Source of the DNA: a virus
Length of the DNA stretch: 45,771 nt
Reading direction: 5' to 3' (one strand)
IMG/VR virus record: IMGVR_UViG_3300006114_000017
Location: 1-45,771 of that record
The notes under the pieces were generated by a model. The model was not told the origin of the DNA. It ran no database searches and saw only the letters and a program-made list of their open reading frames with translations. Position 1 is the stretch's first letter; each line of letters opens with the position of its first letter. Positions 1,347-45,672 of the stretch are shown here, piece after piece. The translations under genes were made by a program, and so were the position numbers.

Positions 1347-1356
1347 CAGTTAATTC

Positions 1357-1962: not shown

Positions 1963-2067
1963 TATCTTCCTTTAAAGCAGTAGAACCAATGGCGCCGAGA
2001 TCTTCCCGGTCACCATTGGCTCTAATAATTACTGCTTCTACCTTTAAACTAAAAGGTAAGTGTTCCA

Positions 2068-2796: not shown

Positions 2797-2797
2797 A

Positions 2798-3067: not shown

Positions 3068-3110
3068 TTAAGCTCCTTCTAGAAGGTGGAGCTTTGCAGT
3101 CCACCGGTTG

Positions 3111-3677: not shown

Positions 3678-3771
3678 TTTAATGCTCCTATTTTCAAGGG
3701 ACTCTCGTCCTCAATAGATACGAAATTTTCATACCTAGTTGTTACTTCAAGGGTATTTCTTTGTACGATGA

Positions 3772-3806
3772 CCGGGGAGCGATCTCGGAGGATCCGACCT
3801 CCCCGG
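3772..3806 (-). other. GC-rich stem-loop in the 3' flank of the capsid gene. Stem is CCGGGGAG/CTCCCCGG, 8 bp, ~19-nt loop.
   Basis: Inverted repeat read directly from the sequence about 20-55 nt past the MCP stop codon. There is no U-run on either strand, so it is not a canonical intrinsic terminator. Confidence 0.25.
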
Positions 3807-3826
3807 CCGTAGTACGGTTGTTAAGA

Positions 3827-4837
3827 CTAAGCCTTAACGATCTTGCCCAGACCACGGGGGTTGAGAACGATCTCGGAAACGAGCTCGTCCATGACCCAAC
3901 CCTTGTGGAACTTCTCAGGCGTGTGGTTCTCTTCGACGTCGAGCGAGTACATGACGGGGAAGACACCGAGGAACTCGGGGCTTGGGGTCATGTAGACAGT
4001 ACCCTGAGGTACTTCGATCGAACGCTGAACTTGGAAACCACCGAATTGAACGATGCGCTCACCAGCAACAACACGGTCCTTGAAGGCCCAACCGGTCTGG
4101 TTGATGTCCCACTTGTAAAGGTCACGGTAGTCGAGTGGGTTGAACAACAGTCTCGAAGCTTCCAACTGGTGGACTTCGATGAGTGCAACGAGGTCGTACA
4201 GCGAGTCAGGGGTGATGTAACCCGAGAGCTCGTTAACGATGTGGTTGGGCGAAACTACGTGGTTGGGGTCAACGGCGTAGTTGTTGATGGCAGCTTCGAG
4301 GACCGTGATCAAACGGGCGTCTTCCTGCATCATGATTGCCTGCTTGGACATGTCCTGGGCGTACTCCACGATGTTTACGCGGAGGTACCACAAGTCTTCC
4401 TTCTTGATCTGAGGGAAGGTAGCGATACGGAACAAACGGACTGGAACCTTCTTACCTTCGAAGGGTGTCACACGGACTTCACCTTCGTTACCGGAAAGAA
4501 TGTAAGCCTGGCCGTACTCGTCGAGGACGTCGTACATGACAGGTACACCAGGGGTAAGCGGGTCTTCCAGGAGGACGTTACGGGTCATACCTTGGTAACG
4601 GAGCTTCAGCTGGATGGGACCGATCATACCCTGGCCCAAACGGACCATGTAGTTGTCCTTGTCGGCCAGAACACCGGCGAGGCGACGCTGCTTCTCTTCA
4701 CGAGTAGCAGTTACGCGGCCAGTTGCAGTCTTAAGACGGTCCTGAGCCTCAATGATACCGGCGACGTAGTCGTCCGACTTCTTGGCTGTGCGGGGAGCGA
4801 GGTGCTCAGCGACAGCGCCATTGGGAGTGATTGACAT
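3827..4837 (-). CDS. Putative major capsid protein (336 aa, HK97-fold candidate)
   Basis: Sits just downstream of the scaffold-like gene in the portal ... scaffold ... capsid order. The gene is markedly GC-rich with strongly biased 'highly expressed' codon choice (GGT, CGT, AAG, GAG, TAC), unlike its neighbours. SD 'AAGGAAA' precedes the ATG at 4835-4837. The fold assignment is inference, not demonstrated homology. Confidence 0.5.
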   Translation of the reverse strand: MSITPNGAVAEHLAPRTAKKSDDYVAGIIEAQDRLKTATGRVTATREEKQRRLAGVLADKDNYMVRLGQGMIGPIQLKLRYQGMTRNVLLEDPLTPGVPVMYDVLDEYGQAYILSGNEGEVRVTPFEGKKVPVRLFRIATFPQIKKEDLWYLRVNIVEYAQDMSKQAIMMQEDARLITVLEAAINNYAVDPNHVVSPNHIVNELSGYITPDSLYDLVALIEVHQLEASRLLFNPLDYRDLYKWDINQTGWAFKDRVVAGERIVQFGGFQVQRSIEVPQGTVYMTPSPEFLGVFPVMYSLDVEENHTPEKFHKGWVMDELVSEIVLNPRGLGKIVKA

Positions 4838-4861
4838 TTTCTATATTTCCTTTCAAATACC

Positions 4862-5389
4862 TTAGGCAGTTGCGCCGAATGGAACGAGACGGACAACAAT
4901 TTGCGTGGGGCTGATGACATCGATCAACTCAGCGACAGGAATGGCGTTCAAGGCACCAACAGTGGCACTTGTACCCGAAGACGAAGTCAGCTGACCAGTA
5001 CCTGAAGCGGTGTACAGCAAGGTACGAGTACCGTTCGTAGGAACGTTGTAAGCTACCGTCGTGTCGAAAGCAGGGGCGGTGATGGTGAAGAAGGCGTTAG
5101 AGCCACCCAACCATACTGACCATGCGTTGACGCCAACCTGAGTTACGTCGTCAATGTTAGGGTTACGGTCAAGAGCAGAAAGACCAAATGGCTTTGCACC
5201 TGAAGCAGTAGCCGTAGCAGCATTGGCAACGGTGTCGGGACCTGTACGGTACATGACCATACCTGAGTAGATGTTCGTGGTGTCCGTGGGATCCAGGAAC
5301 GTGTTGTAAGGTGTAGCCTCGTACTTTTCGTACAGTGGGGTGCACGTACGGTGAACCCCAACGTTAGCTACGCTATTAAGTTGCAGCAT
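4862..5389 (-). CDS. Hypothetical capsid-associated protein (175 aa). Decoration protein is one possibility.
   Basis: ORF track. ATG at 5387-5389. Located between the scaffold-like and capsid genes. Confidence 0.4.
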   Translation of the reverse strand: MLQLNSVANVGVHRTCTPLYEKYEATPYNTFLDPTDTTNIYSGMVMYRTGPDTVANAATATASGAKPFGLSALDRNPNIDDVTQVGVNAWSVWLGGSNAFFTITAPAFDTTVAYNVPTNGTRTLLYTASGTGQLTSSSGTSATVGALNAIPVAELIDVISPTQIVVRLVPFGATA

Positions 5390-5421
5390 ATTTTCTTTCT
5401 CCTGTTAGTAGGGGATTTGGG

Positions 5422-6882
5422 TTAAAGTGTCATCAGCCAATCGTCAGACATAACGTCCTGACGAGTAACTGTTGAGGCCGTTGTCAACCGACCCATTTCT
5501 GGCAAACGATTACTTCCGCTTGCCACTTTCTGGCTCCGGGGTTGACGAGCCCCAGACTCTTCAAACATGTCGATGGAAGCTACAAAACCTGCCAGCTTAA
5601 CATCAGACATTTGTTCAAACTTTGCGATGTGCTTAGCACGATCTTCGTGTTGGATCATGCTCATCTTTTCGAGACGATCTACAACTTGGATAGCAGCGAA
5701 GATCTTTTCACGGCTAGCCTGTACAGCGGCAACAGTGCCTGCGTAAGGAGCCAGGGCAGGGTTGGTGCCATCTTCGAAGTCGATTCTGCCGTGGCTAGGG
5801 CCGTGCAGTTGGTCATCAAGGATTCCTGTCTCGGTACCATCGTTGTAGAATGGTACGTAACCAGCGTCTTCACCGTTTACTTCCTCAGGAACGAGTGCGT
5901 TGGTCTGGTGGTCAGGCTGCATTACGCGCTGACGGTCCCAAACACCAGCCTGGTCATCAAGGTCACGGACATCAACAACCTGGAGGCTCTCCTGGTTACC
6001 GTTAGAAGCCTCCTTAGGCTCCTTCTTGCCATCGCAGTTCTTGGTCTTGCAACCAGGGCCACTGCACCACTCGGTGCGAGCAGACTTCTTCTTCTTCAAG
6101 AAAGCAGGCTTGTCGTCGTCGTCTTCGTCATCATCGTCTTCGCAGTCTTCGCAGCCCTTACCCTTGCAGTTCTTGCAGGATGACTTCTTGCTCTTAGACT
6201 TAGTCTTCTTCTTAGCGGCAGTCTTCTTGTCGTCTGCATCGTCATCATCGTCGGCACCGCCATCCGAGTCGCTGTCGTCGTCTGTGGCAGCAGTCTTGAT
6301 CTCTTCCAAGAGGCCCTCAAGAGCCTTCAGGTCGACAGAAGCTTGACGGTAGTCACCGGTAACAACAAGGTCGTTCTCGATGTCAGTTACGATGCTTGCA
6401 ACGGTACCAACAACCTGGTTGAGGTCATCGTTAGTGCTAGCAAAGCGCAGAACGGTTGCAGCGTCATTCGAAGCAGTGATAAGGTTATTGAAGTCGAAGT
6501 CAACTTCGTCACGGATAGCATCGCGTACTTCACGGCTAGCCTTGTAAACCTGGTACAGACTCTCGTCAATAGGGTTAATGCTTGCGTACATTGGGCCACC
6601 TTCAGAGTAAACGGCACTCGAGCCAGGACCACCGATGATTTCGCTTCCATCGTCAACGCCAGTGAAGTCACGGACATCAAGTTGACGTGTCATTGGCTGG
6701 TTAGCAATCCAGTCAGCTACTTCTTCAGTAGGAGCAGGAGCTTGCTCAGGCCAACCGCCTGAACCAAGACTGTCGACCTGGTCGTATGGTTGCACTCTTG
6801 GAGTGGTAGTCGTTCCCGACATGCCTCTTTGTTGGAAAGCATTTTCTGCTTGCTTAATCATCTCGTCATCAAAACGGCTCAT
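5422..6882 (-). CDS. Putative scaffolding-like protein (486 aa). It has a central poly-Asp/Glu tract followed by a poly-Lys tract containing CxxC knuckles.
   Basis: SD 'GAGGAG' lies 6 nt upstream of the ATG at 6880-6882. The protein has a helical charged composition and sits directly upstream of the capsid region. Low-complexity segments read ...DDDSDSDGGADDDDDADDKKTAAKKKTKSKSKKSSCKNCKGKGCEDCEDDDDEDDDD...CSGPGCKTKNC. Confidence 0.35.
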   Translation of the reverse strand: MSRFDDEMIKQAENAFQQRGMSGTTTTPRVQPYDQVDSLGSGGWPEQAPAPTEEVADWIANQPMTRQLDVRDFTGVDDGSEIIGGPGSSAVYSEGGPMYASINPIDESLYQVYKASREVRDAIRDEVDFDFNNLITASNDAATVLRFASTNDDLNQVVGTVASIVTDIENDLVVTGDYRQASVDLKALEGLLEEIKTAATDDDSDSDGGADDDDDADDKKTAAKKKTKSKSKKSSCKNCKGKGCEDCEDDDDEDDDDKPAFLKKKKSARTEWCSGPGCKTKNCDGKKEPKEASNGNQESLQVVDVRDLDDQAGVWDRQRVMQPDHQTNALVPEEVNGEDAGYVPFYNDGTETGILDDQLHGPSHGRIDFEDGTNPALAPYAGTVAAVQASREKIFAAIQVVDRLEKMSMIQHEDRAKHIAKFEQMSDVKLAGFVASIDMFEESGARQPRSQKVASGSNRLPEMGRLTTASTVTRQDVMSDDWLMTL

Positions 6883-7592
6883 GATTGCTCCTCGCTAGTT
6901 TCTTCGTTTTTATTTTGTGCATCAATCTCTGCGGTGCCCTTGAGCAGGTCCCACATTCTTGTGGTACCATCCATGGCTGCATTCATTGAGTCATCTTGAA
7001 GAGCTCCAGGATTCATACCCTTTGCACTCTTCTTTTTAAGCTTCTTCTTATTCTTTTCGATCTTTTGTGATGCTGGACTTAGGAAATTACGCTTGATGTT
7101 TTTTCCTACCTCAGGATCTATACCCAGGAACTTGGGTCTTTTAAATCCTAAAGCTCCAGCAATTTCGTGTCCGCAGGCAGGATTTTCACAAGAACCTGAC
7201 AAATCGCCCTTTTTCATCGAGTCATTAACGAATGTACGCTGCTTACAACGAGGACATTCAGCCTTACCACTTGATGTACCGCTAAGGTCGAGACCTTCAA
7301 AGTCTGGTGAAACAATGTCTACAAAAGACAAGCTTCTGTAGGCAGCTTTAGCATTAGGGTTCTGCTCTGCAAGACTCTGCTGCTGCTTTACAACCTGTTG
7401 GATGCCCATCGCATCTTGCCATTCTTGAATAGCTTCTTGTACCCGAGGGTCAATATAGCTACAGTCTGGACAAATGCCATCTCTGTAACCATTACCTTGA
7501 CACTGCGGGCAATCACCAAGAGGTGAAATGGATACCCTGATTACTTCCAGTGCATACTTCTTAATATCGCTAGATACCTTGAGGACAGGCAT
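6879..7592 (-). CDS. Zinc-ribbon protein (CPQCQ...CPDC and CPRC...C..C motifs) with a Lys-rich C-terminal half
   Basis: The ORF-track start at 7622 is a TTG that overlaps the upstream gene. The in-frame ATG at 7592 lies immediately after the upstream stop, so I adjusted the start. Cys motifs are read from the translation. Confidence 0.4.
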   Translation of the reverse strand: MPVLKVSSDIKKYALEVIRVSISPLGDCPQCQGNGYRDGICPDCSYIDPRVQEAIQEWQDAMGIQQVVKQQQSLAEQNPNAKAAYRSLSFVDIVSPDFEGLDLSGTSSGKAECPRCKQRTFVNDSMKKGDLSGSCENPACGHEIAGALGFKRPKFLGIDPEVGKNIKRNFLSPASQKIEKNKKKLKKKSAKGMNPGALQDDSMNAAMDGTTRMWDLLKGTAEIDAQNKNEETSEEQS

Positions 7593-7594
7593 TG

Positions 7595-8254
7595 TTAGTA
7601 ACGCTTCTTTTGCAACAACCAAGCTGATTCGTCTGCTGGCTCAAATACAAAGCTCAGCTCGAAGAAGTTAGGTCTGATGCAACTTTCGAATACAAGGCTC
7701 TCAATACGCTTGCCAGCCTTGTAAACAGTAACGGTGCGTCCCTTAAGACGAGGAATGTGTGTGCAGTACTCAGCAGGCTTGCTGGCAACCTTGCCGCAGG
7801 CACTGCATTGTGTGCAATCGACGTCAGCACCCATGCTGACAGCGTTCAAGCTACCTTCCATAATGGAGTTGGCTAGCTTAGGAAAACTTTGTGCATCTAC
7901 TTCCATCAGGCAGTAAACACTTCCGTCTGTTGCACCGGAGGCGAGCTTGCTCTCACGGTAAACAGCATCGAGAATAACCCCACGAGCACGATCAGGATCT
8001 GAGTTGTTGTGCTCAACGTAGATAGGCCGACCAACAAAAGTCTTGTAGCTTTGCTTGATTTGGTCTACAGGCCAACCATCATAATTAGCGTTTACTCTGG
8101 AGGAAATGGCTCTAGAAACAGCGTAAACATAACCAGGTTCTGGCTTAAAGTTAAAATCGTCAAAGGTTACATTGTGCAGCTCAATTGGCTGACCGACGCC
8201 AGCAAGAGTCTCTCTACCTTGTAGAGCAATTGAGGGAGCACCAAATTTTATCAT
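7595..8254 (-). CDS. Hypothetical head-module protein with a CxxCxxC...CxH motif. Its position suggests a prohead protease, but this is unproven.
   Basis: ORF-track start at 8302 is a TTG. An in-frame ATG (MIKFG...) with a GAAAAGG SD-like sequence is more plausible. It sits between the portal and the scaffold, the usual protease slot. No protease motif was confirmed. Confidence 0.25.
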   Translation of the reverse strand: MIKFGAPSIALQGRETLAGVGQPIELHNVTFDDFNFKPEPGYVYAVSRAISSRVNANYDGWPVDQIKQSYKTFVGRPIYVEHNNSDPDRARGVILDAVYRESKLASGATDGSVYCLMEVDAQSFPKLANSIMEGSLNAVSMGADVDCTQCSACGKVASKPAEYCTHIPRLKGRTVTVYKAGKRIESLVFESCIRPNFFELSFVFEPADESAWLLQKKRY

Positions 8255-8317
8255 CTTCAGAACCTTTTCTGTATTAACATATATTTTACATCGTTGTAAC
8301 AATTAAAACTATGTTAA

Positions 8318-9333: not shown

Positions 9334-11715
9334 TTATAAATCTTCCTTTGGAAGATCTGGGTGATAATCTCCGCTAATAGCAGGTGCACTGATCGCACTA
9401 TCTCCACCCATACTGTTGCCACCGGCCATATCAGCGATAGGGTTACCAGTATCTTCAGGGTTAGTAGGAGTAGGGATCATTGAGCTATCACCGTCAAGAG
9501 CATTAGCAAGATGTTGCTTAAATGCCTCTTCGTCAAACTTCTCATAGCTATTGTCAACAATAACCTTCATACCAGTAGCAAGCTTCATACGCTTACGCTT
9601 CTTCTGCTCAAATGGTACAGCGAACTTCATACGGTCACCGTATTCAACGCGACCACTAAAGTCATCGTAATCATCTTCGTCCCAACCAGATACGGATGCA
9701 GTCTTCTTCTTAGGTCCATTCTTAGGACCCTTCTTAGAAGGCTTAGGTTGGCTCTTACGCTGTTCGTAGCTTTCTTCTGGACGTTGACGTTGCTGAGCAG
9801 CTTCTTGGTTGATGCTTGGGTATACTTGTGCACCAGCAGCAGCGTCACTGTTGCCTGCGGCATTACCAGTCATATTGGGTGCGCTAGGTGGAGCTACAAG
9901 ACCAGCCATAGCACCTGGGGCAAGCTGTGCACCAAGCGATGGGTCTTCCATCATCGCTAGGTAGGCCTGGTATTCCTGTACATATTCTGGTGGTACTGGC
10001 AATTGCAGAACCATCAAACGGTTGAACAGTTCCTTCTTGAATTGCTGTTCAGCAACAACCGTCTTAATCTTCTCTTCCTTACGTGCATCAATCTCGTCAT
10101 CGAAGTCGATTGGGATATTGACAGCAAGTGTGCTGAGGGAGATGGGGAAGCCTGAGGCGCTGAGCTGCTGGAGGAACCCACGCTCAACTGTCTCATCTCT
10201 GAGGTTCATCGAACGGAATCTTACCTCTGGAATGGCCAGCTTGGGTCGTTCTTCAACATATTCAGCACCAGTCTCTTCATCAACCATGAGAACAGTTTCC
10301 ATAACAGGTACCATTTGGCCACCCACGTTACGCATCTCATAGTGACCTTGTCTTTCTGCTACTGGCTCCATACGGGAACGGATAAACTTCTCGATCTTGT
10401 GCTGGTAAGTACTAAGCATCTGAGTAATAAGCTCTCGGTTCAAAGCACCTGAAGCATAGGTACCACCCTGGCCACCCTGAATAAGGTCAGCACCGATACC
10501 GAATACACCCATGAGGTTTGTCTGTACACGCATGAAATCTGTGTCAAGACGAGGCATGCTTTCACGTCCAAAGGCGTTCTGGATCTGCAAACCGTGGTGG
10601 TATGTCATCAGACGGAAGTCTGAGTTAATAGCCATGGCCAAGTCGTCACGCAAAGACTGGAGCTCCATAGCATCTGGGATCCATGGACCGTCCTGGTCTA
10701 CGTCAGGAAGTCCCAAGGTAGCAAGGATAAGGGGAGAATACAGACGGTCAGCAATAGCGTCTTGAGCGGAGTTGAGGGACTCCTCAAGCATAAGAGTGCG
10801 AAAGGCACGAAGAAGAATAGGAGTACCATGTTCGCTCCACGGGTTGGTAGAGAACTTGATCTGCTTCATGATTACATCAGAAACAGGGATTTCCTTATCT
10901 TGTCTAGCCCAAGCCACAACGTCTGGATAGAGCTGCATAAGCATTGCATACTCTTGTGGAGGATCACGACGTTCGATAAGACGCTTGATCTCTTCAGGTA
11001 CCTTAACGTGGAACTGGTATGTTCTAAGAGCACGGTTCTTAGCGACGATAACGTCGTTAGGGTTGATGATCTCATCTTCTTCCCATGCACCAATACCATC
11101 GTGCCAAGAACCCATGGCGAACACTTCACCAACGGTCCAGTGCTCACGACCAAGGTCATAGAGGAAGTCTTGGTAATTAAGACCATCAAAGAACAACTCA
11201 TTATAGAAGTCAGAGATGCGCTTGTCGGGGTGTACTAGCTCGATGTCCAGCAAGGGGAAACGAGTATAGATGTCAATAAGACCAGGTACCAAGTGGTGAG
11301 TGGTGTAAAGAAGGCGAGCCCAGTCACGTATCTTACGAGTCTGCTCATCTGGGTCTTCCATGTTGAACCACCACGTGCGCTCACGCCAGTATTCAAATGG
11401 GTCGTGTAGCTTAGGAAGTGCCCACTGGGCATCTGATCCTGTAGCAGCAGCAGTTCTGCGGTTAGACGTTCTAGCCATGCCGTTCTCAGCAAGGAAGTCA
11501 GAACCTAACTTATTAAGACGTTGTCTACCCTCTGGAGGTCCACCCATTGCAGTAGCCATTGGACCAATGTCATTAAGCATTGATCCTGGCGTAGAAGCCC
11601 TATTGAGCATGTCACGTGCAGCGACACGCCCAGCAATAGGGTTCTTAGGAAGGGTGATACCAGATGTCTTCATGCGGCTAAATTCCGCAGAAGCACTCCA
11701 GTCGTTGGTAGCCAT
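9334..11715 (-). CDS. Putative portal protein (~793 aa)
   Basis: Large protein at the head of the morphogenesis block, with a long acidic/Lys-rich C-terminal tail. The first codon reported by the ORF tool is TTG at 11718. The ATG at 11715 was taken as the start. The call rests on size, position and composition. Confidence 0.55.
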   Translation of the reverse strand: MATNDWSASAEFSRMKTSGITLPKNPIAGRVAARDMLNRASTPGSMLNDIGPMATAMGGPPEGRQRLNKLGSDFLAENGMARTSNRRTAAATGSDAQWALPKLHDPFEYWRERTWWFNMEDPDEQTRKIRDWARLLYTTHHLVPGLIDIYTRFPLLDIELVHPDKRISDFYNELFFDGLNYQDFLYDLGREHWTVGEVFAMGSWHDGIGAWEEDEIINPNDVIVAKNRALRTYQFHVKVPEEIKRLIERRDPPQEYAMLMQLYPDVVAWARQDKEIPVSDVIMKQIKFSTNPWSEHGTPILLRAFRTLMLEESLNSAQDAIADRLYSPLILATLGLPDVDQDGPWIPDAMELQSLRDDLAMAINSDFRLMTYHHGLQIQNAFGRESMPRLDTDFMRVQTNLMGVFGIGADLIQGGQGGTYASGALNRELITQMLSTYQHKIEKFIRSRMEPVAERQGHYEMRNVGGQMVPVMETVLMVDEETGAEYVEERPKLAIPEVRFRSMNLRDETVERGFLQQLSASGFPISLSTLAVNIPIDFDDEIDARKEEKIKTVVAEQQFKKELFNRLMVLQLPVPPEYVQEYQAYLAMMEDPSLGAQLAPGAMAGLVAPPSAPNMTGNAAGNSDAAAGAQVYPSINQEAAQQRQRPEESYEQRKSQPKPSKKGPKNGPKKKTASVSGWDEDDYDDFSGRVEYGDRMKFAVPFEQKKRKRMKLATGMKVIVDNSYEKFDEEAFKQHLANALDGDSSMIPTPTNPEDTGNPIADMAGGNSMGGDSAISAPAISGDYHPDLPKEDL

Positions 11716-11727
11716 CAATTAGTCTTT

Positions 11728-25230: not shown

Positions 25231-25314
25231 TGGTCGATGGGGAGAGATTCGAACTCCCGTACCCGAAGGATCTGGTTTACAGCCAGACGCGATTGGCCAC
25301 TCCGCCACCCATCG
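25231..25314 (-). tRNA. tRNA-Tyr (anticodon GTA), type II with a long variable arm. CCA is encoded.
   Basis: Hand-folded cloverleaf: acceptor CGATGGG/CCCATCG, 3-bp D-stem, anticodon stem TCTGG/CCAGA with loop CTGTAAA, long variable arm, T-arm GGGAG-TTCGAAT-CTCTC. Confidence 0.7.
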
Positions 25315-25319
25315 ATTTG

Positions 25320-25390
25320 CTGAGGGAGAAGGACTCGAACCTTCAACAAAAGCTCCAAAGGCTCCCGTGTTGCCATTACACCATCCCTCA
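25320..25390 (-). tRNA. tRNA-Gln (anticodon TTG)
   Basis: Acceptor TGAGGGA/TCCCTCA, anticodon loop CTTTGGA, T-arm GAAGG-TTCGAGT-CCTTC. The anticodon stem has two G-U pairs. Confidence 0.6.
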
Positions 25391-25412
25391 ATGTTTATTG
25401 CATGGCATGCAG

Positions 25413-25499
25413 CGGAATGAGTAGGATTCGAACCTACGGAGGCTTTGATACCTCGCCGGTTTAGCAAACCGGTGCTTTCGACCACTCAGCCATCATTCC
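25413..25499 (-). tRNA. tRNA-Ser (anticodon GCT), type II with a long variable arm
   Basis: Acceptor GGAATGA/TCATTCC, anticodon stem CCGGT/ACCGG with loop TTGCTAA, long variable arm, T-arm GTAGG-TTCGAAT-CCTAC. Confidence 0.65.
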
Positions 25500-25504
25500 T
25501 TATG

Positions 25505-25576
25505 CTCCCAGGGTAGGGATCGAACCTACGACCGAGCGATTAACAGTCGCTTGCTCTGCCGCTGAGCTACCTGGGA
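25505..25576 (-). tRNA. tRNA-Asn (anticodon GTT)
   Basis: Acceptor TCCCAGG/CCTGGGA, D-loop AGCTCAGCGGCAGAGC, anticodon stem AGCGA/TCGCT with loop CTGTTAA, T-arm GTAGG-TTCGATCCC. Confidence 0.7.
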
Positions 25577-29335: not shown

Positions 29336-29901
29336 TAATTGGCCTTTCCAGATAGATTGCAAATTAGAATTTTTTTATCTTCATCGTAATCAAACTCACA
29401 TGCGTTGTCATACTCTTTAATATAGTTAATTAATTTTTGCTTTGTAGTTTCTTCATCACCAAAATCAAGAGCCATACCACTAGAAGAATCACCAAGCAGA
29501 TCAATATCATCAATCAGAATAGTGTGAGCTTTGCGAGGGCGAGCAAAGATTACGTTTAACTCATCCATCAAAGGAACTGCTGGGTGTTCTACATTCGGGT
29601 CACCGCTTGCGCTGTGAGCATCGAGCCAGAAATCTAGCGGGACATCATAAGGCTCAATCATCTCTGATAATTTTTCTTTTGAGTCGCCTAGAAATAACAC
29701 TACTCTGTTGTCATTATCAAACTTGCTACAACAATTATCGTAGAAAGATTTATTGAACTCAACAGTTATAACCTTTTCATAACCAAGACCAAGTGCTATT
29801 TCTACTGTATAGCCATGTTGTGTACCAGTTTCTACAAAGATATTATTTCTCTTATATTTAGAGAACATCAATGTCATTGCTTCTGTGCTTCTATCTGCCA
29901 T
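29335..29901 (-). CDS. Putative class I SAM-dependent methyltransferase (188 aa). Sugar O-methyltransferase is a candidate function.
   Basis: Gly-rich motif-I-like VETGTQHGYTVEIA is followed by an acidic residue at the end of beta-2 (EKVITVEF). No SIS motif is present, so it is not GmhA. Family assignment is tentative. Confidence 0.3.
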   Translation of the reverse strand: MADRSTEAMTLMFSKYKRNNIFVETGTQHGYTVEIALGLGYEKVITVEFNKSFYDNCCSKFDNDNRVVLFLGDSKEKLSEMIEPYDVPLDFWLDAHSASGDPNVEHPAVPLMDELNVIFARPRKAHTILIDDIDLLGDSSSGMALDFGDEETTKQKLINYIKEYDNACEFDYDEDKKILICNLSGKAN

Positions 29902-30911
29902 TATTCCATCTCAATCATTATTCTACCGGCAATGCCGCTTCTAAGTGTATCAAATGCTTCATTTACTTCGTCAAGTTTATATCTGTGAGTAATGAACTCA
30001 TCAATATAAAGCTTCCCAGCCTTCTCGAGCTTAACATAACGCAAGATATCGTTAGAAGGATCTGTCTTGCCACCCTGGGTAGCCTTGATACTAAGACCAT
30101 TACCATTAAAGAAGCTGAGTGCATTGACGATTTCAAGTGACGTTCCTGGCTTGGGTTGACCCACAAGAATCATTCGGCCATTGTTAGATAGATAGCCAAA
30201 GCTCTTCTTAATAACATCGACGTTTCCAGTCGTATCAATAACAACGTCTACTTTACCTTCAAACTCTGTTTCTGAAGTGTTGTAAAAGAAGTCAGCACCA
30301 GCCATGAATGAAAGGTCGCGCTTGCTTTCATTGTTGTCAATAGCAACAATTGGGCTAAGGCTACGCATAGCTGCACCTTGGATGAGGTTAAGCCCTACAC
30401 CACCCGTACCGACAACTGCAACGCTTTCACCAAACTTAAAATCGCACTCATTGTCGATAATACCTAGTGCGGTAGTCAAACTGCATCCAAGGAGCGCAGC
30501 GAGGTCATTAGGGGTCTCTGAAGGGACTGTAGTGAGTCGGTTCTCTGACACGATAGCCCACTGAGCAAGAGTATTTACCTTGCCACTACTAAAAGTCTTG
30601 TCACCAAGGGTGTACTGAGGAAACGCAGCATCGATACCAGTACCTGGTCGCCAGTGCATAACAACCTTGTCACCTACTTTAACAGTGGTTACTCCAGGGC
30701 CAATGTCTTCTACAATGCCACAACCCTCATGACCCATAAGGTGAGGAAGGAACTTGCCATTACCCTTGTTGCCATTGATCTCGTGTAGTTGTGAGCCACA
30801 GATACCGCTGACAAGGACACGAACCTGTACTTGACCCACTTGGAGCTCAGTAAGGCCAACATCTTCAATAGAAAGAGGAGCGTTGAGCTCTTTGAGAACG
30901 GCAGCCTTCAT
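29901..30911 (-). CDS. Zinc-dependent medium-chain alcohol/polyol dehydrogenase (MDR family)
   Basis: GHEGCG catalytic-zinc motif, GxGxxG NAD-binding motif (VVGTGGVGL), and the ~335 aa length typical of threonine/sorbitol dehydrogenase-like MDRs. Confidence 0.65.
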   Translation of the reverse strand: MKAAVLKELNAPLSIEDVGLTELQVGQVQVRVLVSGICGSQLHEINGNKGNGKFLPHLMGHEGCGIVEDIGPGVTTVKVGDKVVMHWRPGTGIDAAFPQYTLGDKTFSSGKVNTLAQWAIVSENRLTTVPSETPNDLAALLGCSLTTALGIIDNECDFKFGESVAVVGTGGVGLNLIQGAAMRSLSPIVAIDNNESKRDLSFMAGADFFYNTSETEFEGKVDVVIDTTGNVDVIKKSFGYLSNNGRMILVGQPKPGTSLEIVNALSFFNGNGLSIKATQGGKTDPSNDILRYVKLEKAGKLYIDEFITHRYKLDEVNEAFDTLRSGIAGRIMIEME

Positions 30912-31759: not shown

Positions 31760-31761
31760 AG

Positions 31762-31835
31762 CGACCTTGATGGGACTCGAACCCACGACCCCCACCGTGA
31801 CAGGGTGGTGCTCTAACCAACTGAGCTACAAGGCC
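31762..31835 (-). tRNA. tRNA-Asp (anticodon GTC)
   Basis: 5'-GGCCTTGTAGCTCAGTTGGTTAGAGCACCACCCTGTCACGGTGGGGGTCGTGGGTTCGAGTCCCATCAAGGTCG. Anticodon stem CCACC/GGTGG with loop CTGTCAC. T-arm GTGGG-TTCGAGT-CCCAT. Confidence 0.7.
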
Positions 31836-32371: not shown

Positions 32372-32920
32372 TCAATTATTTGGCAATTCTGTCAAAATAT
32401 TGAAAGAAGCAGCAAGATCAGCTGGCATCATTTGGTAAGGGTTGCGGTCGAATACAATGCCGCCTGCCCACAAGGATTGTGCTACTACGGCACTACAAAT
32501 CATGGTGTTGCTATTTGTGAACTGCATCTTAATACCAGTCAGCAACTCCAAGGCAATACTCAAGATGGTTAGGAAACCATACTTATCCTTAATGAAGCTC
32601 TTGCAAGCAGAAACCGTTTGATCACGGCTTTGCTTGTTAAGCTTTGTTGTAACGTAGTAATACTCTACGTCTTTGTATTCACTAATGTTGCTTACGATAA
32701 CACCACGGCCAACAGCCTCAACGATGGTTCCACCTTCATCGATGATCATAGCTGCATGGTTCCAATGAGCAAAAGGCTTCATCTTTCCGTGGTAACGGAT
32801 GAATTGACCAAAACGAATGAACTTAGCTAGAATGCCCTTAGATGAAACCAGGATGAAGTCACCTGGTACATACTTTGTTGGGTCTTGTCCTGCGGCATAT
32901 ACCTTATATGTCGTAGTCAT
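32372..32920 (-). CDS. Permuted NlpC/P60 (YaeF/YiiX-like) papain-fold peptidase. Candidate endolysin or peptidoglycan endopeptidase.
   Basis: The His motif HWNHAAMII precedes the Cys motif NTMICSAVVAQS. This is the circularly permuted His-then-Cys order seen in the YaeF/LRAT branch. Assigned from the motif pattern only. Confidence 0.35.
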   Translation of the reverse strand: MTTTYKVYAAGQDPTKYVPGDFILVSSKGILAKFIRFGQFIRYHGKMKPFAHWNHAAMIIDEGGTIVEAVGRGVIVSNISEYKDVEYYYVTTKLNKQSRDQTVSACKSFIKDKYGFLTILSIALELLTGIKMQFTNSNTMICSAVVAQSLWAGGIVFDRNPYQMMPADLAASFNILTELPNN

Positions 32921-33968: not shown

Positions 33969-34835
33969 CTACATACGCGGATACTTGAGCTTTTTAAACC
34001 GTTCGAGGCTCATTCCCTCATATCTACGGCACAAAGAGTCAAGTGAAATCTGCTGGATGTCATAACTACCGTTTTGGACACCATGCTTAACGACAATACC
34101 TCTAAAGTGAGCATTGCCTTGTGGTCCCTTGTAGTTTTCATCGTGCAGGTAACAAGCACCGGCTACAAGGCCATGCTGTGAGAACGCATCATTCTCATCT
34201 CTTCCACCATTTACGTAACGCATGCCATAAAGGAACGTTTGTTGGTGACCCATAGTAAATGAGTGGCCGATATTCTTCAGACGAGCATCAATCGTACCAC
34301 CATAGGGGTTTCCCGTCATAGGGTTATAAAAGAAGTGACTGTAAGCTACACCATCAAGCCAAAGAATGTGCTTGAATGGGCTAACTCTCCAACCGCTACG
34401 GGCATAGTCAAGGTCATCTGTGCTAAATAGGCCATCAATCTGTGCATCCATCTCTGTTGCACGGTTGATACGATCTTCGTGGTTACCAAGAAGAATGTGA
34501 CGCTCTGGGTTCCAGATAGCATGCTTAGACTTACGCTTGTTTTCGTTATAGTCATAAAGAGGCTGGTTTAGGATGTGCCAGTGTTCATTGGCAGCTTCAA
34601 TGTCTGCTTTGACACGACGACCCTCCATGCTCTTCTTACCCTTATCGTACATTGAAAGGGCTGGCATATCAGCGTGGTCACCAAGGTGAATGATCTTCAC
34701 ATCTTGGTTGTGGAACTCTTCTACAATATAGTTACCGATCCAAGTGAGGTGGTCGGTTGGGACCCCATCTTTAGCTTGGGTGTCCGGGATAACGATGTGT
34801 GTTGCTGGGTCTTTCTCGACAGAGCTATTCGTCAC
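33969..34835 (-). CDS. Calcineurin-like metallophosphoesterase (288 aa)
   Basis: Ordered metallophosphatase motifs IVIPDTQ, IIHLGDHAD and LLGNHEDRI, plus later His residues (GHQQ, HGL). Confidence 0.6.
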   Translation of the reverse strand: MTNSSVEKDPATHIVIPDTQAKDGVPTDHLTWIGNYIVEEFHNQDVKIIHLGDHADMPALSMYDKGKKSMEGRRVKADIEAANEHWHILNQPLYDYNENKRKSKHAIWNPERHILLGNHEDRINRATEMDAQIDGLFSTDDLDYARSGWRVSPFKHILWLDGVAYSHFFYNPMTGNPYGGTIDARLKNIGHSFTMGHQQTFLYGMRYVNGGRDENDAFSQHGLVAGACYLHDENYKGPQGNAHFRGIVVKHGVQNGSYDIQQISLDSLCRRYEGMSLERFKKLKYPRM

Positions 34836-35299: not shown

Positions 35300-35566
35300 T
35301 TAGTTAGCTTTGTAAGCTACAAGTGCCAAGTTCTTTAGGCACTCTTCTGGGGTGATCCCATTTACGCTTGATAGTTTATTGATAAACACCATCATAACAC
35401 CAGCAAGTGAGCTGAAGAGTTGGATGGGATCACTCTCGAGGACCATTTCATAAGCTAGTTCCTCTTGGCCGCTGATGATTGCTGTCATCAAAGCGACTAC
35501 GTTGCCAATGTTCTCTGTTACAGAATCCATTATGCCTCGGTAGACGCCTTCAAGAACCAACTCCAC
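35300..35566 (-). CDS. Small hypothetical protein (88 aa)
   Basis: ORF track. Confidence 0.35.
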   Translation of the reverse strand: MELVLEGVYRGIMDSVTENIGNVVALMTAIISGQEELAYEMVLESDPIQLFSSLAGVMMVFINKLSSVNGITPEECLKNLALVAYKAN

Positions 35567-36051
35567 TTTTGGTGTTGATCAATGCGTTCAGCAATGAAGT
35601 TTGCAATACCTTGCTCGTTATCTTTGTCAGCAAGAACAAAGACCTTTTTAATGTGATCAATGTATTCGTTATTCATATCTAAGAATTGCTTAGCAAGATT
35701 ACGTGCATCATCATCGTTAGAACCTACTTCTTTAATTCTACTAAGTCCAGACAATTGGCTCATTACAAAAGGAGCTTTAGCATCAAGCTTTCTGATGTTT
35801 TCTGCAATTGGGTCAATGTTTTCGTAGATATCATCTACGATCTCATCAAAGAACTTGTGATATTGATAGAAGTCATTACCAACAACATTCCAGTGGAAAC
35901 CATGAATAGTGTGATAGAGAACGTATGCTTCAGCAAGCATTCTTTTCAGAGCAGTGACCAAATCACTAACATCTTCTTCATATTCTGGGTTTCTAGTGTC
36001 GTCTTCTACTTCTGTTGCACTGACGACTCTAAAGCCATTCCAATTGTCCAT
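35530..36051 (-). CDS. Dps/ferritin-like protein (DNA-protection-during-starvation family; 173 aa)
   Basis: The ferroxidase-site motif block ...YHTIHGFHWNVVGNDFYQYHKFFDEIVDDI... matches the Dps signature HWNVxGxxFxxLHxxFEE. The length is right for a Dps four-helix bundle. Confidence 0.55.
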   Translation of the reverse strand: MDNWNGFRVVSATEVEDDTRNPEYEEDVSDLVTALKRMLAEAYVLYHTIHGFHWNVVGNDFYQYHKFFDEIVDDIYENIDPIAENIRKLDAKAPFVMSQLSGLSRIKEVGSNDDDARNLAKQFLDMNNEYIDHIKKVFVLADKDNEQGIANFIAERIDQHQKWSWFLKASTEA

Positions 36052-36053
36052 TG

Positions 36054-36788
36054 TTACAGCCAGTTAAGGCCATCTCCGAACGACTCATCAATTGATTGCT
36101 CAACAAGGCGAGCAGACAGCTTGTTTGCGCTAGCACTCTTGATGCTGCGGAAGCCTGCACCCTCGTTCTTAGCACGACGGCAAATCTCTACATTGTCAAC
36201 AAAGTTTTCAATGATAGATGCACGCTTTACAGTGTCAAGGATAGGAAGCGTCTTACGCTCTACGTAGTAAACAGCAGCTTCACGTGTGTCAAGCTGGCTG
36301 CCCAGAAGGCGGTTGTGTTGGTCTTCGACCCAAACCTCAGCACCAGCGGTAACGAAGTTGATCCAGTCAGCTGACTCAAACTCGTTCTCAATGCCAGCAG
36401 CTGTACGGTACAAAAGGCTGCCATCGTCTTCGCCAAGGTCACTTGTGCCAGCACTGCTAACGCGATATTCCTTAGCAATTGTGCCACCAGGCAAGCTATT
36501 GAGGTAGTCCTCAGTGTCAAAGTCAACGTACTCTGAAGCCAGCTTCTCGAGCGATTCCTTCTCAGCACCAAGCTCGGTGATGATGTTAGCATAGCGCTCG
36601 ATCTCTCTTTGACCAACGTTAGGGTTGCTAGCAGCCATACGAGTCTTGTCCAGAATGTCCTGCAGCCTGTCAAGACGTGTCAAGATGCTCTCTGAGGTAC
36701 CATTAAACCAGCGTGCATCAGCAGCTGCGGTCTTGGCTTCAATCTCAATATTTTCGTAGTTCATAATGGAATCTTTCTTTTTCCTCAA
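36054..36788 (-). CDS. Hypothetical protein (244 aa)
   Basis: ORF track. Confidence 0.45.
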   Translation of the reverse strand: MRKKKDSIMNYENIEIEAKTAAADARWFNGTSESILTRLDRLQDILDKTRMAASNPNVGQREIERYANIITELGAEKESLEKLASEYVDFDTEDYLNSLPGGTIAKEYRVSSAGTSDLGEDDGSLLYRTAAGIENEFESADWINFVTAGAEVWVEDQHNRLLGSQLDTREAAVYYVERKTLPILDTVKRASIIENFVDNVEICRRAKNEGAGFRSIKSASANKLSARLVEQSIDESFGDGLNWL

Positions 36789-36791
36789 ACA

Positions 36792-37442
36792 CTATTGCGC
36801 GTTACGGCTATGATTACATTCATCGTGTGTCATATGTTCTGTGCAAAAACTAGGGCCCAACTCTTCTGAAAGCAACTCGGCTAGCTTCTTGCTAGCAGTA
36901 GTACCACTATTCAATGGGTTAGCACCATTCAGCTCACCGGGTTGAAGGTCATTGGGAGCAGTAGCTTGGCCAATAGGACTTTGGTTAGTGGCAGAAAAAT
37001 CTTGTGATTTTCCCGAAGGAGGAGCTGGGTTAGGACCGTTGTTGGCAAAGTTCTGTGAGCTTGCTGCCTGTGGGACAATCAGATCGGGAGCACCTTCAAA
37101 ATAAGCAAGTGCGTTAACGATCTTTGATGCACCCTTGCGGTGTCTCCAAGAGTAAACTGAATCAGCTGCCTTATCAAGTGCATCTTCTTCACTTTCCTTT
37201 TGACCAGGCTCGTATGGGTGACACTTGGCTCTGTCTCCAGGACCCTTCCAGCCAGGCTTAGTGCCTTCTGCAGTTTCAATAGTGCATTCTCTCAGCTCGT
37301 TCTTAATATTGGCAGCAGTGATGCTAAAACCAAGATATGAGCTAAGAATTACGCGGCGGCAACCATTGCAATAGATTTCTGGGCCAGCCTTGCTAGATGT
37401 TCTAACAAGCTCACCCTTTCTGCATATAAAACATTTTTCCAT
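36792..37442 (-). CDS. Hypothetical protein with an N-terminal zinc ribbon (MEKCFICRKG...CNGCRR). C-terminal half is rich in Gly/Asn/Pro/Ser.
   Basis: The ORF-track start at 37559 overlaps the upstream gene by 116 nt. The in-frame ATG at 37442 follows the upstream stop directly. Confidence 0.4.
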   Translation of the reverse strand: MEKCFICRKGELVRTSSKAGPEIYCNGCRRVILSSYLGFSITAANIKNELRECTIETAEGTKPGWKGPGDRAKCHPYEPGQKESEEDALDKAADSVYSWRHRKGASKIVNALAYFEGAPDLIVPQAASSQNFANNGPNPAPPSGKSQDFSATNQSPIGQATAPNDLQPGELNGANPLNSGTTASKKLAELLSEELGPSFCTEHMTHDECNHSRNAQ

Positions 37443-37443
37443 A

Positions 37444-38724
37444 TTAGAACCTAAAGAACTTTTCGAGAACATCAACGGGGAGACCGATAGATGAAGTTCT
37501 TGCAGCAGGTGGGTTCGTTGGGTCTTTTGCCCAAGCTGCTCTAGAAGCAACATCTGCATTGTTTTTAGCTTTGTTGTAGTTCATGCCAGTTCCAGGAGTC
37601 GCTATAGCTTTTCCATGTGCTTCTGCTGCATCCATGTGTGCGAAGTAAGCTTCTCTGTGATCAGGGTTGTTACCATGGAAAGTATCAGCACCATGAAACT
37701 CTGGAGAACCATCGGAGTTTGTTCTTCCTGTCCATGGAGTGTTACCCTGCAACTTGTTAGCAGCATTGAGGTGATTATCACGCAAAGTTGCATGATAGTT
37801 ATTGGTATCATCCTTTTGGGAGTCTTTACGATCCATGAACATGTGTGCAGCATCATACATACCGGCTTGCTTGGATGCAGTGGCGTGACCAAAACCATCA
37901 GTCAGCTCAAGAGGACCACGATCAGCTTCGCCAGGTGTCATATCGTGTGAACGAGGAATTAAGTTGCTATTTGGTTTAATGTCATACAAGCTTTGACCTT
38001 CGCTCTGCTGAGGGGTCTTGTTGTAGAACTTGTATTGTGTGTAACCGTTGTAGTAGTCCTTGCTCAAGAGGGCAAGATCCTCGTCCATTGGCTTACCGGC
38101 TTGTGCATCGCCGTAGCCTTGGTAGTAAAGCTCACTGTCGTTAGCTTCTTTGAACATAGCGTAGAAAGCACCAGCGGCACCCATCTTGGCTTCTTCCTTA
38201 ACGATGTCACGCCCAGCATCAAGGTCGCCAGCAGTAGGGCCTTCTACTGTTGTAAGGCTCTCACCCGAGAAGTTATTTTCGCCAATGCCGTGGTCATTAG
38301 CAGGCTGGTTGCAACCACAATTTGTGCATGCAATGCGTGTTCCTGGGAAGTATGTCTTTTCGCAGTGATTACAGAATGGCTCACCATTCTCCATCACGTA
38401 TGCAATTCTTGCATTCATGCTCATGTTTGCTCCAATAATTGTTGATAGCGATCCTGGAGATACGCTAGAAAGCCCTTCATTGCTTACAACTGGTGGTTGC
38501 CCCTCGAGATCAATTGTATCCTTAGGCTCATCGCCCAAAGCAGTCAATCTCGTAGAGTTTTCGTCTTCGTTACCAATGTCTGCAAATCTAAAGTGGCCAA
38601 CAGTACCGACTTGGCTTTGTCCTGGAAGGCCAAACCCTGCATCGTCTTCTTCGGTAGCGTCTTCAATGCCTCGTAGCGAAGCATCGTCTCCGTAATTACC
38701 GTTATCCTGCGTAGCGTATCTCAT
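37444..38724 (-). CDS. Hypothetical protein (~426 aa) with a CNHC...CTNCGC cluster. Rich in Gly/Asp/Asn/Tyr.
   Basis: First codon at 38727 is TTG. The ATG at 38724 was taken as the start. Confidence 0.45.
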   Translation of the reverse strand: MRYATQDNGNYGDDASLRGIEDATEEDDAGFGLPGQSQVGTVGHFRFADIGNEDENSTRLTALGDEPKDTIDLEGQPPVVSNEGLSSVSPGSLSTIIGANMSMNARIAYVMENGEPFCNHCEKTYFPGTRIACTNCGCNQPANDHGIGENNFSGESLTTVEGPTAGDLDAGRDIVKEEAKMGAAGAFYAMFKEANDSELYYQGYGDAQAGKPMDEDLALLSKDYYNGYTQYKFYNKTPQQSEGQSLYDIKPNSNLIPRSHDMTPGEADRGPLELTDGFGHATASKQAGMYDAAHMFMDRKDSQKDDTNNYHATLRDNHLNAANKLQGNTPWTGRTNSDGSPEFHGADTFHGNNPDHREAYFAHMDAAEAHGKAIATPGTGMNYNKAKNNADVASRAAWAKDPTNPPAARTSSIGLPVDVLEKFFRF

Positions 38725-38759
38725 CAATGACTAGTGCGCCTTGGGGGCTATTTTAACTC

Positions 38760-39839
38760 TTATTCCCAGCTGGTTGGTTTGTCATTGTTAGTTGAATTGA
38801 AACGATCTTCATTCAACAAATCAATTAATCTATTGCTGCTACCAGTGATTGGTCGAGCTGGCGTTGGGAAGTTAGATATAGTTTGTGGGAAATTAAGCTC
38901 AAGGTTAATTCCTGCTCCAGGACCAGATGACCCTTTTTCTGGCGTTTGCTTTGTAGGCATTGGTTCTTGACCAGTTTCAAGCTTAGTTTTCTGTTGTGGT
39001 GGGTTACTAGTCTCTTGCTCACTCTTAGTAGAAGTTTCTTCTTCAAGAGAAGGTTCTGGCATAGCTTCTGTTTTATCACCAATTGTTTTAGGAGCTGGCT
39101 GCCAAGTTGTGGGAGATGGTTGTGGTGTGCTAGGAGGAGTCTTTGATGGCTTACCAGGAACAGTGAAAGGTGGAACTGTGATTGGCTTAGTAGGAGCCAA
39201 TGGGTGAGTCTCGAGAGGCATGATGCTACCAACTACGGGGTTAGCAGGGCTTGCAAAGCTCTGTCCACCACCAGAATCTGGCGTATTGTTGATATCATTG
39301 CTATTGTCGCCATTTTCATTACCGCTTGAGTTGCTACTAGGCAAGTTCTTCAATGCATCGCTAAGGCCACCACCTTCTGCACCTGCAGCGGCCTCTCCAG
39401 CGCCAGCGACTGCTTCTCCAGCACCAAGAAGCTCTGGGATAGCAAGAAGAGGACCAGCAGTCACAATTGTGCTTGCTGTGACCATGCGAAGTTCCTTAGC
39501 AGCGAACCCCTTACCAGCTTCTGACTGGTAAACTTGGTTATCTGTCAATGCATAAGGAATAACGTTAACAGTTGCGTGCGCTTTGCGCAGCATTTCTGTT
39601 GCAATGCCTTGGTTTCGGTATTCTGGCTCGACGTAAACACCATCCATGATGTAGTTGCCACTAGCTTGCTTTTCAGCAGTGAAATAACCGATTCTTTCGT
39701 CTCCAACCATTGCTTCAACAAGAAGACCAGAGAACGTGCCACCAGTCTTGTATTGCATTGGGCCAACGTTAGCAACAATTCGAACCTTGTCACCTTGTTC
39801 TTCAAGGATCTCATTAAGTCTTGGTGGGATAGTAGCCAT
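38760..39839 (-). CDS. N-terminal GNAT acetyltransferase-like domain fused to a long Pro/Thr/Ser/Gln-rich (mucin-like) low-complexity tail (359 aa)
   Basis: VYVEPEYRNQGIATEMLRKA matches the GNAT acetyl-CoA-binding motif A (Q/RxxGxG/A). The tail reads ...PTKPITVPPFTVPGKPSKTPPSTPQPSPTTWQPAPKT... Confidence 0.4.
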   Translation of the reverse strand: MATIPPRLNEILEEQGDKVRIVANVGPMQYKTGGTFSGLLVEAMVGDERIGYFTAEKQASGNYIMDGVYVEPEYRNQGIATEMLRKAHATVNVIPYALTDNQVYQSEAGKGFAAKELRMVTASTIVTAGPLLAIPELLGAGEAVAGAGEAAAGAEGGGLSDALKNLPSSNSSGNENGDNSNDINNTPDSGGGQSFASPANPVVGSIMPLETHPLAPTKPITVPPFTVPGKPSKTPPSTPQPSPTTWQPAPKTIGDKTEAMPEPSLEEETSTKSEQETSNPPQQKTKLETGQEPMPTKQTPEKGSSGPGAGINLELNFPQTISNFPTPARPITGSSNRLIDLLNEDRFNSTNNDKPTSWE

Positions 39840-45176: not shown

Positions 45177-45224
45177 AACTAAACCAGTCCTGAGGAGGAC
45201 ACTATGAAGGAAGTAACAACGATC
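45177..45224 (+). repeat. Copy 1 of an exact 48-bp direct repeat: AACTAAACCAGTCCTGAGGAGGACACT + ATG + AAGGAAGTAACAACGATC. It covers the SD and the first 7 codons.
   Basis: Read directly from the sequence. The second copy is at 45625..45672. Confidence 0.8.
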
Positions 45225-45624: not shown

Positions 45625-45672
45625 AACTAAACCAGTCCTGAGGAGGACACTATGAAGGAAGTAACAACGATC
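45625..45672 (+). repeat. Copy 2 of the 48-bp direct repeat
   Basis: Read directly from the sequence. Confidence 0.8.

Follow-up and report, generated by a model that had tools for sequence, protein, structure and literature searches.

The ferroxidase sites of Dps proteins sit between the subunits of a 12-mer cage. The E. coli protein also condenses DNA, and its Lys-rich DNA-binding tail is a feature of E. coli-type Dps that is not universal among Dps proteins. Known targeting elements for shells and phage heads are the cargo peptide of encapsulins, the N-terminal signal of T4 internal proteins, and the tail of the HK97 protease, a C-terminal region that directs encapsidation even of foreign proteins. 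Phage-encoded Dps is already known. Dps genes were reported for Lactobacillus phages (PMC6669764), and for the "Gratiaviridae" and 36 other gut phages, where they were read as cytoplasmic protection against oxidative stress (PMC8008677); deposited Dps annotations exist for Synechococcus phage S-SRM01 and C. tetani phages. A ferritin-like protein of phage G, gp346, was detected by particle proteomics (PMC12484599). In a literature survey of incomplete coverage, which does not prove absence, we found no report of a fusion between Dps or ferritin and a prohead or capsid maturation protease, nor of either one in polyvalent proteins, and a 2025 preprint raised procapsids carrying cargo-like enzymes only as speculation. 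Here, we describe a Dps-family gene on the minus strand of IMG/VR virus record IMGVR_UViG_3300006114_000017, analyzed over its positions 1 to 45,771 (hereafter, the window). We propose, at a probability of roughly 0.45, that its product is an active mini-ferritin tethered to a phage assembly, probably the procapsid; the location is taken from fusions found among its relatives.

Like the reported phage Dps genes (Semele, LP65, "Gratiaviridae", S-SRM01, C. tetani phages, phrog_3636), which were interpreted as protection from iron or peroxide damage, the window gene belongs to a tailed phage. It differs from them in the phage that carries it, a cluster C mycobacteriophage-like myovirus of another lineage and probably another host group, in an N-terminal peptide of its own, and in a fixed partnership with an adjacent gene for a protein of 236 amino acids. 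The interpretation hinges most on that peptide, on the link by fusion to the 236-amino-acid protein, and on the head-protein fusions of the relatives.

The open reading frame (ORF) runs from an ATG at 36051 to a TAA at 35532-35530. This start codon is supported because translated conservation in at least 633 homologues includes the N-terminus. The product matched PF00210 of Pfam with 71.8 bits (7.3e-20; gathering cut-off 24.5) and phrog_3636 over its full length (1.3e-29; residues 26-171 aligned with positions 3-147 of the 149-position profile). More than 60 solved Dps chains were matched as well, with P. aeruginosa Dps (8ff9) at the top (1.1e-19) and H. pylori HP-NAP at 1.7e-16. Three NCBIfam Dps models also matched, all under their equivalog cut-offs (NF041388, 61.9 vs. 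170 bits; NF006975, 49.5 vs. 114 bits; NF052461, 35 vs. 300 bits). Judged from these scores, the protein is a Dps and not an orthologue of the curated NCBIfam Dps types. A classical 24-mer ferritin or bacterioferritin was rejected, as the best sequence and fold matches were all Dps proteins and the ligand pattern was of the inter-subunit Dps type. Plus-strand ORFs overlapping the gene found no support and were taken as antisense shadows. In-frame read-through from the gene upstream was ruled out, the two ORFs being in different frames.

An AlphaFold2 model of the monomer (mean predicted local distance difference test, pLDDT, 88.5) contained helices at residues 31-55, 61-88, 97-103, 116-143, and 147-172, including the short BC helix. 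Foldseek aligned it to solved Dps subunits with a root-mean-square deviation of 1.1-1.6 Å and template modeling scores of 0.84-0.93, normalised to the target; gp346 of phage G was a structural match, too. In the phmmer alignment to HP-NAP, residues H53, H65, D80, and E84 corresponded to H25, H37, D52, and E56, and the equivalents of H53, W54, H65, D80, and E84 in E. coli Dps were H51, W52, H63, D78, and E82. These five residues were invariant when 24 family members were aligned with E. coli Dps and HP-NAP; the HP-NAP residues agree with the phmmer alignment. In an alignment of 68 family sequences, H53, W54, H65, and E84 were invariant and D80 nearly so. Bacterial Dps proteins (PA0962, 8ff9; HP-NAP, 1ji4/3t9j; V. 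cholerae, 3iq1; E. coli) share with the window protein the four-helix bundle with BC helix (1.3-1.6 Å for the best matches), a similar core size, and the H/H/D/E inter-subunit ligands with the adjacent Trp, whereas the identity to solved bacterial Dps is only ~16-31%.

Because sequence matches, conserved ligands, and fold agree on a Dps with an intact ferroxidase site, the gene is predicted to encode a catalytically competent Dps-type mini-ferritin with the corresponding iron chemistry. This bears out the original prediction, made from the DNA letters, of a Dps/ferritin-like protein (PF00210, 71.8 bits; solved Dps, 1.1e-19; fold match), and the ferroxidase signature quoted in its favor (HTIHGFHWNVVGNDFYQYHKFFDEIVDD) was found at residues 47-74. 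The His/Asp/Glu ligands, whose loss in an alignment with bona fide Dps had been named as counter-evidence, were all kept. A 12-mer cage had been offered there as a "structural alternative", but it is no alternative, since Dps ferroxidase sites lie between the cage subunits. Iron sequestration and protection from oxidative damage, as usually inferred for Dps, are a plausible role.

Compared with E. coli Dps, an extra 30-residue stretch, made up of a conserved peptide plus an acidic linker, replaces the Lys-rich tail. Nearly all full-length family members carried the peptide of residues 1-10 or a close variant of it, with F7 invariant and G6 nearly invariant in 68 sequences; E. coli Dps and HP-NAP are without this region. 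P0122, a relative with 57% identity, retains the peptide, and its linker holds a zinc ribbon. Linker length varied from 12 to 32 amino acids in the family, with on average 4.5 acidic and 1.3 basic residues, and residues 1-33 of the window protein include 10 D/E vs. 2 K/R. Model confidence was low over residues 1-10, with pLDDT below 50 at residues 10-25. No Lys/Arg-rich terminal tail was found in the protein, which has neither a basic N-terminus nor a C-terminal tail. That the protein binds DNA as E. coli Dps does is unlikely because the N-terminal region differs from that of E. coli Dps and a Lys-rich tail is missing. The constancy of the peptide alongside a varying linker, together with the acidic character of the tail, speaks for tethering, and a docking role of the peptide is plausible. 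The first Glu follows 4-5 residues past the motif in 78 of 92 family members; as a candidate cleavage site for a head protease, this conserved Glu is only a lead.

The stop codon of the 236-amino-acid gene lies 2 nt before the Dps ATG. Its product had 182 homologues, highly conserved and nearly all exactly 236 amino acids long. No Pfam domain was detected in it, no fold match was significant (the best, at E=0.02, was a 236-amino-acid protein of a cluster C mycobacteriophage), and no homologue turned up in 25 kb of phage Tonenili searched by profile. To avoid a sample biased by the presence of Dps, we used the 53 loci retrieved by the 236-amino-acid gene itself. Dps followed immediately downstream in 47 of them, and the six loci without it were the most divergent. 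As 47 of the 53 loci carry the gene and divergent ones skip the slot, Dps is a one-gene cassette that is fixed in the main sub-lineage. Two of the six (L098 and L099; 4687-4772) have an otherwise intact block in which the Dps slot measures only 85 nt, and they provide natural "without" genomes for comparison with Dps-carrying ones. P0123, a protein of 866 amino acids, combines an N-terminal Dps domain with two repeats homologous to the 236-amino-acid protein (phmmer 2.4e-28, profile 1.3e-39), which argues that the 236-amino-acid protein and Dps work together. No full-length loci of P0123 or P0222 were recovered from IMG/VR.

Both genes belong to a minus-strand block that reads, in the order of transcription, 427-amino-acid protein, zinc-ribbon protein, 236-amino-acid protein, Dps, three small genes, metallophosphoesterase, 353-amino-acid protein, and papain-like peptidase. 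The genes are tightly packed and co-directional and were kept in 22-28 of 29 related viral loci; Dps was syntenic at its slot in 27-28 of the 29, and the small gene directly downstream was conserved in 28. No terminator-like site was found on the coding strand from ~42.9 to 31.5 kb. The metallophosphoesterase had been described as the adjacent gene, and the surroundings as "early-like". In fact, three small genes separate it from Dps, and the early-like context is unsupported, Dps being located in a long conserved co-directional block. A sigma-70-like match (11 of 12 positions; TTGACA, 16-nt spacer, TATCAT) lies within the 236-amino-acid gene at 36211-36238 on the minus strand, ~160 nt upstream of the Dps start. 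It may mean nothing, because promoter-like matches in the region occur at chance level (18 found vs. 18.7 expected).

To explore Dps domains related to the window protein, 1.84 billion cluster representatives were searched exhaustively; of the 4261 matches obtained, the best 150, with 35-57% identity, were examined. Most of these were long multi-domain proteins, 97 of the 150 having at least 250 amino acids. The Dps core could be located in 143. It was internal in 63 and stood alone in 31; in the other 49, it formed an end of a longer protein, whose extension was C-terminal in 28 and N-terminal in 21. An acidic linker commonly stood just upstream of the Dps domain in the fusion proteins. All 59 long relatives scanned contained PF00210, with the iron-ligand columns of Dps invariant throughout. 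Such constancy in the fusions, and the full or near conservation of the ligands within the family, points to selection for catalytic function. Peptidase_S78 of Pfam was present in 16 of the 59, and others had Mu-F, Mu-I, XkdF, zeta-toxin, HAD/PNK, or Hva1_TUDOR domains. PHROGs labelled 19 of the 59 as head maturation protease. With local profiles, a head protease was recognized in 28 of the best 150, in protease-Dps order in 15 and in Dps-protease order in 13. Matches to "major head protein" PHROGs were rejected as capsid-protein fusions; they are not independent evidence because they fall on the protease part of protease-capsid PHROGs.

The genomic position of these fusions was informative. 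P0396, an S78-Dps protein deposited at NCBI as "Prohead protease [uncultured Caudovirales phage]", is encoded on ~43-kb contigs between the genes for portal and Phage_capsid, with connector, tube, and tape-measure genes coming next. For P0428, with Dps-S78 order, the succession is terminase, portal, fusion, a 432-amino-acid gene placed where the capsid gene would be expected (without a recorded Pfam hit), and connector. In two unrelated phage types, the fused Dps gene thus fills the protease slot between portal and capsid genes. Proteases without Dps, 84-95% identical to the Dps-carrying one in the protease part, end in PVNPRTLGTVVGKAL, a short acidic linker, and LDTSALDTFERALDRLSQR; the S78-Dps fusions retain the PVNPRTLGTVVGKAL and LDTSALDTFERALDRLSQR flanks with Dps inserted between them. 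As the insertion precedes the retained protease tail, whose counterpart in HK97 directs encapsidation, Dps would occupy the position of cargo in the S78 fusions. In P0397-P0400, relatives of the S78-Dps fusion P0188, and at locus L044, proteases 84-95% identical to the Dps-carrying one have Dps replaced by other sequence, of 269-308 amino acids total length, and keep the same C-terminal tail. These alignments suggest that different modules can generally be exchanged at the site between S78 protease and tail.

A third architecture, P0207, was found at full length in ~35 viral loci on contigs of up to 216 kb (~200-kb phages). Its N-terminus shares 40% identity with the "protease/scaffold" ORF123 of Bacillus phage 0305phi8-36, Dps is placed between the protease and a coiled-coil C-terminus that represents the scaffold part, and the capsid gene follows two ORFs downstream. 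The head maturation protease of the window matched the P0207 N-terminus weakly in a direct comparison (4.5e-4) and more strongly on jackhmmer iteration. It is 47% identical to a "capsid maturation protease" of a Gordonia phage, and homologues are labelled "head maturation protease" in several jumbo phages. By sequence, it and the Dps-fused protease of P0207-type jumbo phages are members of one family. Judging from these architectures, viral Dps domains are recurrently built into proteins that assemble inside the procapsid, which applies to the relatives and not to the window protein itself. Fusion proteins such as P0396, P0428, and the P0207 family contain the closest Dps domains outside the cluster of the window protein (within the same 35-57% range, with the same ligands), and there Dps is a covalent part of a head-assembly protein in a portal-protease-capsid module, whereas the window Dps is a separate protein with only a short N-terminal peptide.

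Further architectures were seen among the relatives. P0121 is a tandem Dps-Dps protein with a C-terminal extension of 430 amino acids, L037 encodes at 652-7737 a protein of 2361 amino acids with a Dps domain at 1779-1925, and P0158 and P0185 combine Dps with zeta-toxin or P-loop kinase modules, one of them also with an S78 protease. The nearest stand-alone relatives of the window Dps were all metagenomic, and a search by family motifs found no close cellular relatives in 185,579 species-representative genomes. Against isolate phages, tblastn gave a Dps match in 10 of 50,697 records (~6 phages), with identities of at most 30%. The expectation that Dps is uncommon in phages therefore holds for isolates and fails for viral metagenomes.

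From established Dps biochemistry, twelve subunits of the window protein would form a hollow shell in which Fe(II) is oxidized, preferably with H2O2, and iron is deposited as a mineral core; with Fe(II) and H2O2 both consumed, both Fenton reagents would be removed. The N-terminal peptide may tether this shell to a phage assembly, with the procapsid interior as the likeliest target and the adjacent 236-amino-acid protein as a possible mediator. Encapsidated Dps would stay with the phage DNA and protect it, instead of freely helping the host cytoplasm. For the capsid association of the free-standing protein, taken as a separate claim, our estimate extends from doubtful to somewhat short of even odds. 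Several observations weigh against such a role. The placement of the window Dps in the capsid is taken from relatives; the protein itself is free-standing, its gene lies ~24 kb from the head module, and the neighbors are enzymes (phosphoesterase, papain-like peptidase, GNAT domain). The WNGF[RK] motif occurred in no other ORF of the window, leaving no shared targeting signal visible. As for the putative partner, divergent relatives keep the 236-amino-acid gene and the block without Dps, indicating that the partner does not need Dps. Only one fusion to the 236-amino-acid domain (P0123) was found, and the AlphaFold2 model of the 236-amino-acid protein was weak (pLDDT 64). Finally, gp346 of phage G is the one indirect precedent for a ferritin-like protein in phage particles, and the particle proteome in which it was detected also held clearly non-structural enzymes (PMC12484599).

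Another reading is a free cytoplasmic auxiliary, a soluble Dps that would mop up Fe(II) and H2O2 and, during oxidative or iron stress, keep the host and the replicating phage DNA viable, with no capsid association and an N-terminal peptide that merely stabilizes the dodecamer or tunes solubility. We regard this as a strong rival, possible though short of probable, and nearly as likely as capsid association. It accords with the intact catalytic site, with the published interpretation for Dps of Lactobacillus and gut phages, with a free-standing gene amid enzymes and distant from the head module, and with the clean presence or absence at one slot that is typical of accessory cassettes. What it leaves unexplained is the frequent location of the nearest viral Dps domains within head proteases, scaffold, and polyvalent head proteins, the strong conservation of the N-terminal peptide on a variable linker, and the fusion with the 236-amino-acid neighbor.

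Multi-domain head proteins of the polyvalent type are thought to be packaged and injected. Related Dps domains do occur in long proteins with Mu-F "minor head protein", zeta-toxin/kinase, HAD/PNK, and Hva1_TUDOR modules, as well as in the large protein of L037, which would fit a delivered effector: Dps would be packaged and ejected with the DNA into the next host, where it would shield the incoming DNA or blunt iron- or ROS (reactive oxygen species)-dependent host defences as infection begins. However, a 12-mer of ~9 nm is too big for the tail channel and would have to travel unassembled, the window Dps has a single domain, and the neighbors of its gene show no homology to ejection proteins; we consider this role improbable. 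Least probable of all is a shell that serves as oligomerisation hub or as DNA condenser reorganising host or phage DNA, with no relevant iron chemistry, for which DNA condensation by E. coli Dps, the PHROGs label of phrog_3636 ("DNA binding protein") and the handiness of a 12-mer as multimerisation module in fusions may be cited, since the N-terminal tail is acidic and not Lys-rich, the protein has a low pI, and the iron ligands are invariant in the fusions and conserved or nearly so in the family.

Taken alone, the window Dps adds one more lineage to the known phage Dps genes, that of a large, uncultured, actinobacteriophage-related myovirus abundant in metagenomes. The wider pattern is weightier, namely that catalytically intact Dps domains, as judged by their conserved ligands, were repeatedly wired into procapsid-internal assembly proteins. 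A general reading of the virus-specific Dps clade as natural enzymatic cargo of tailed-phage capsids, loaded through a terminal peptide in the window protein and, in relatives, through covalent insertion into the head protease or scaffold, is rather doubtful at present. If it were true, mature virions would carry ferroxidase-active, iron-storing nanocages beside their DNA, a viral counterpart of ferritin-loaded encapsulins. Encapsidated Dps would mean that phage particles bring their own protection from iron- or peroxide-driven DNA damage and that virions act as an iron vehicle, and it would offer a concrete, testable example of the proposed bridge from HK97-fold procapsids to encapsulins. The S78-linker-Dps-tail architecture also offers a natural model of how HK97-type capsids might be loaded with cargo. 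The fusion relatives follow the same logic as encapsulins with ferritin-like cargo and capsid-targeted internal head proteins: the shell is of the HK97 type, the enzyme belongs to the ferritin superfamily, and a short terminal peptide, set on a flexible linker, retains the carrier's tail. In encapsulins, however, the cargo consists of EncFtn, Flp, or IMEF instead of Dps, and no genome is enclosed. This logic is that of the relatives; targeting and packaging of the window Dps are hypothetical, and no sequence likeness to known targeting peptides is claimed.

An overview of the features of the window is given in Table 1.

Table 1. Coordinates of the Dps gene, its parts, and other features of the window.
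Feature	Position	Strand	Remarks
Dps-family gene	35530..36051	minus	173 amino acids; predicted 20.2 kDa, pI 4.65
N-terminal peptide MDNWNGFRVV, candidate docking/targeting motif	36022..36051	minus	residues 1-10; family-specific
Acidic linker	35962..36021	minus	residues 11-30; length variable, predicted disordered
Dps four-helix-bundle core, short BC helix	35533..35961	minus	residues 31-173
Ferroxidase-centre segment	35800..35913	minus	residues 47-84: H53, W54, H65, D69, D80, E84
Upstream partner gene	36054..36764	minus	236 amino acids, all-helical
Downstream small gene	35300..35530	minus	~76 amino acids from ATG at 35530; start overlaps Dps stop (TAATG)
Metallophosphoesterase	33969-34835	minus	widespread in many phages
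Papain-like C92-type peptidase	32372-32920	minus	common to ~130-kb Streptomyces phages
Zinc-type alcohol dehydrogenase superfamily protein	29901-30911	minus	phrog_2640, 1e-89
GNAT acetyltransferase-domain protein	38760-39839	minus	
Portal	9334-11718		phrog_2833, 8e-165
Head maturation protease	7595..8302	minus	homologues annotated capsid or head maturation protease
Major capsid protein gene	3827..4837	minus	with portal, defines head module

The source of the window is, on sequence grounds, an uncultured large myovirus distantly related to cluster C mycobacteriophages, and its host is probably actinobacterial. The portal shares 39% identity with portals of cluster C mycobacteriophage myoviruses. 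Furthermore, the window encodes a virion protein of 1054 amino acids and five tRNAs, with almost all genes on one strand. Loci of related viruses were located on contigs of 120-138 kb. A megablast search with 12 kb around the Dps gene found no match among deposited phages. The papain-like peptidase had come up as a candidate prohead protease from its PHROG label ("enoyl-CoA hydratase-like"), and this candidate was discarded on its identification as C92-type.

The longest ORF at 3761-4834 on the plus strand (357 amino acids) is an antisense shadow of the capsid gene. This ORF even has a match in Mycobacterium phage Tonenili, on the antisense strand of its capsid region, and could easily mislead automatic gene callers. 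Two minus-strand genes located between those for head protease and capsid (5422-6882 and 6879-7622) encode proteins that show CxxC zinc-ribbon pairs as well as an extreme poly-Asp/poly-Lys tract (DDDSDSDGGADDDDDADDKKTAAKKKTKSKSKK, CKNCKGKGCEDC); they may be scaffold-like. Zinc ribbons were also present in the Dps-block genes 36792-37442 and 37444-38727, and directly upstream of the Dps domain in many of the fusions.

Four of the tRNA genes form a cluster at 25231-25576 on the minus strand (Tyr-GTA, Gln-TTG, Ser-GCT, and Asn-GTT), and a separate tRNA-Asp-GTC is found at 31761-31835, likewise on the minus strand; all are co-directional with the protein genes. A tRNA cluster is likewise present in Tonenili, a cluster C mycobacteriophage, where it precedes the portal region. 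At the right end, a hairpin-plus-tail sequence (GTCCTCCTCAGGAC TGGTTTAGTT) was found in two identical copies on the minus strand, at 45635-45648 and 45187-45200, ~450 nt apart. The pair lies near the only plus-strand ORF stretch at this end and may mark a transcription boundary, as a terminator or regulatory element.

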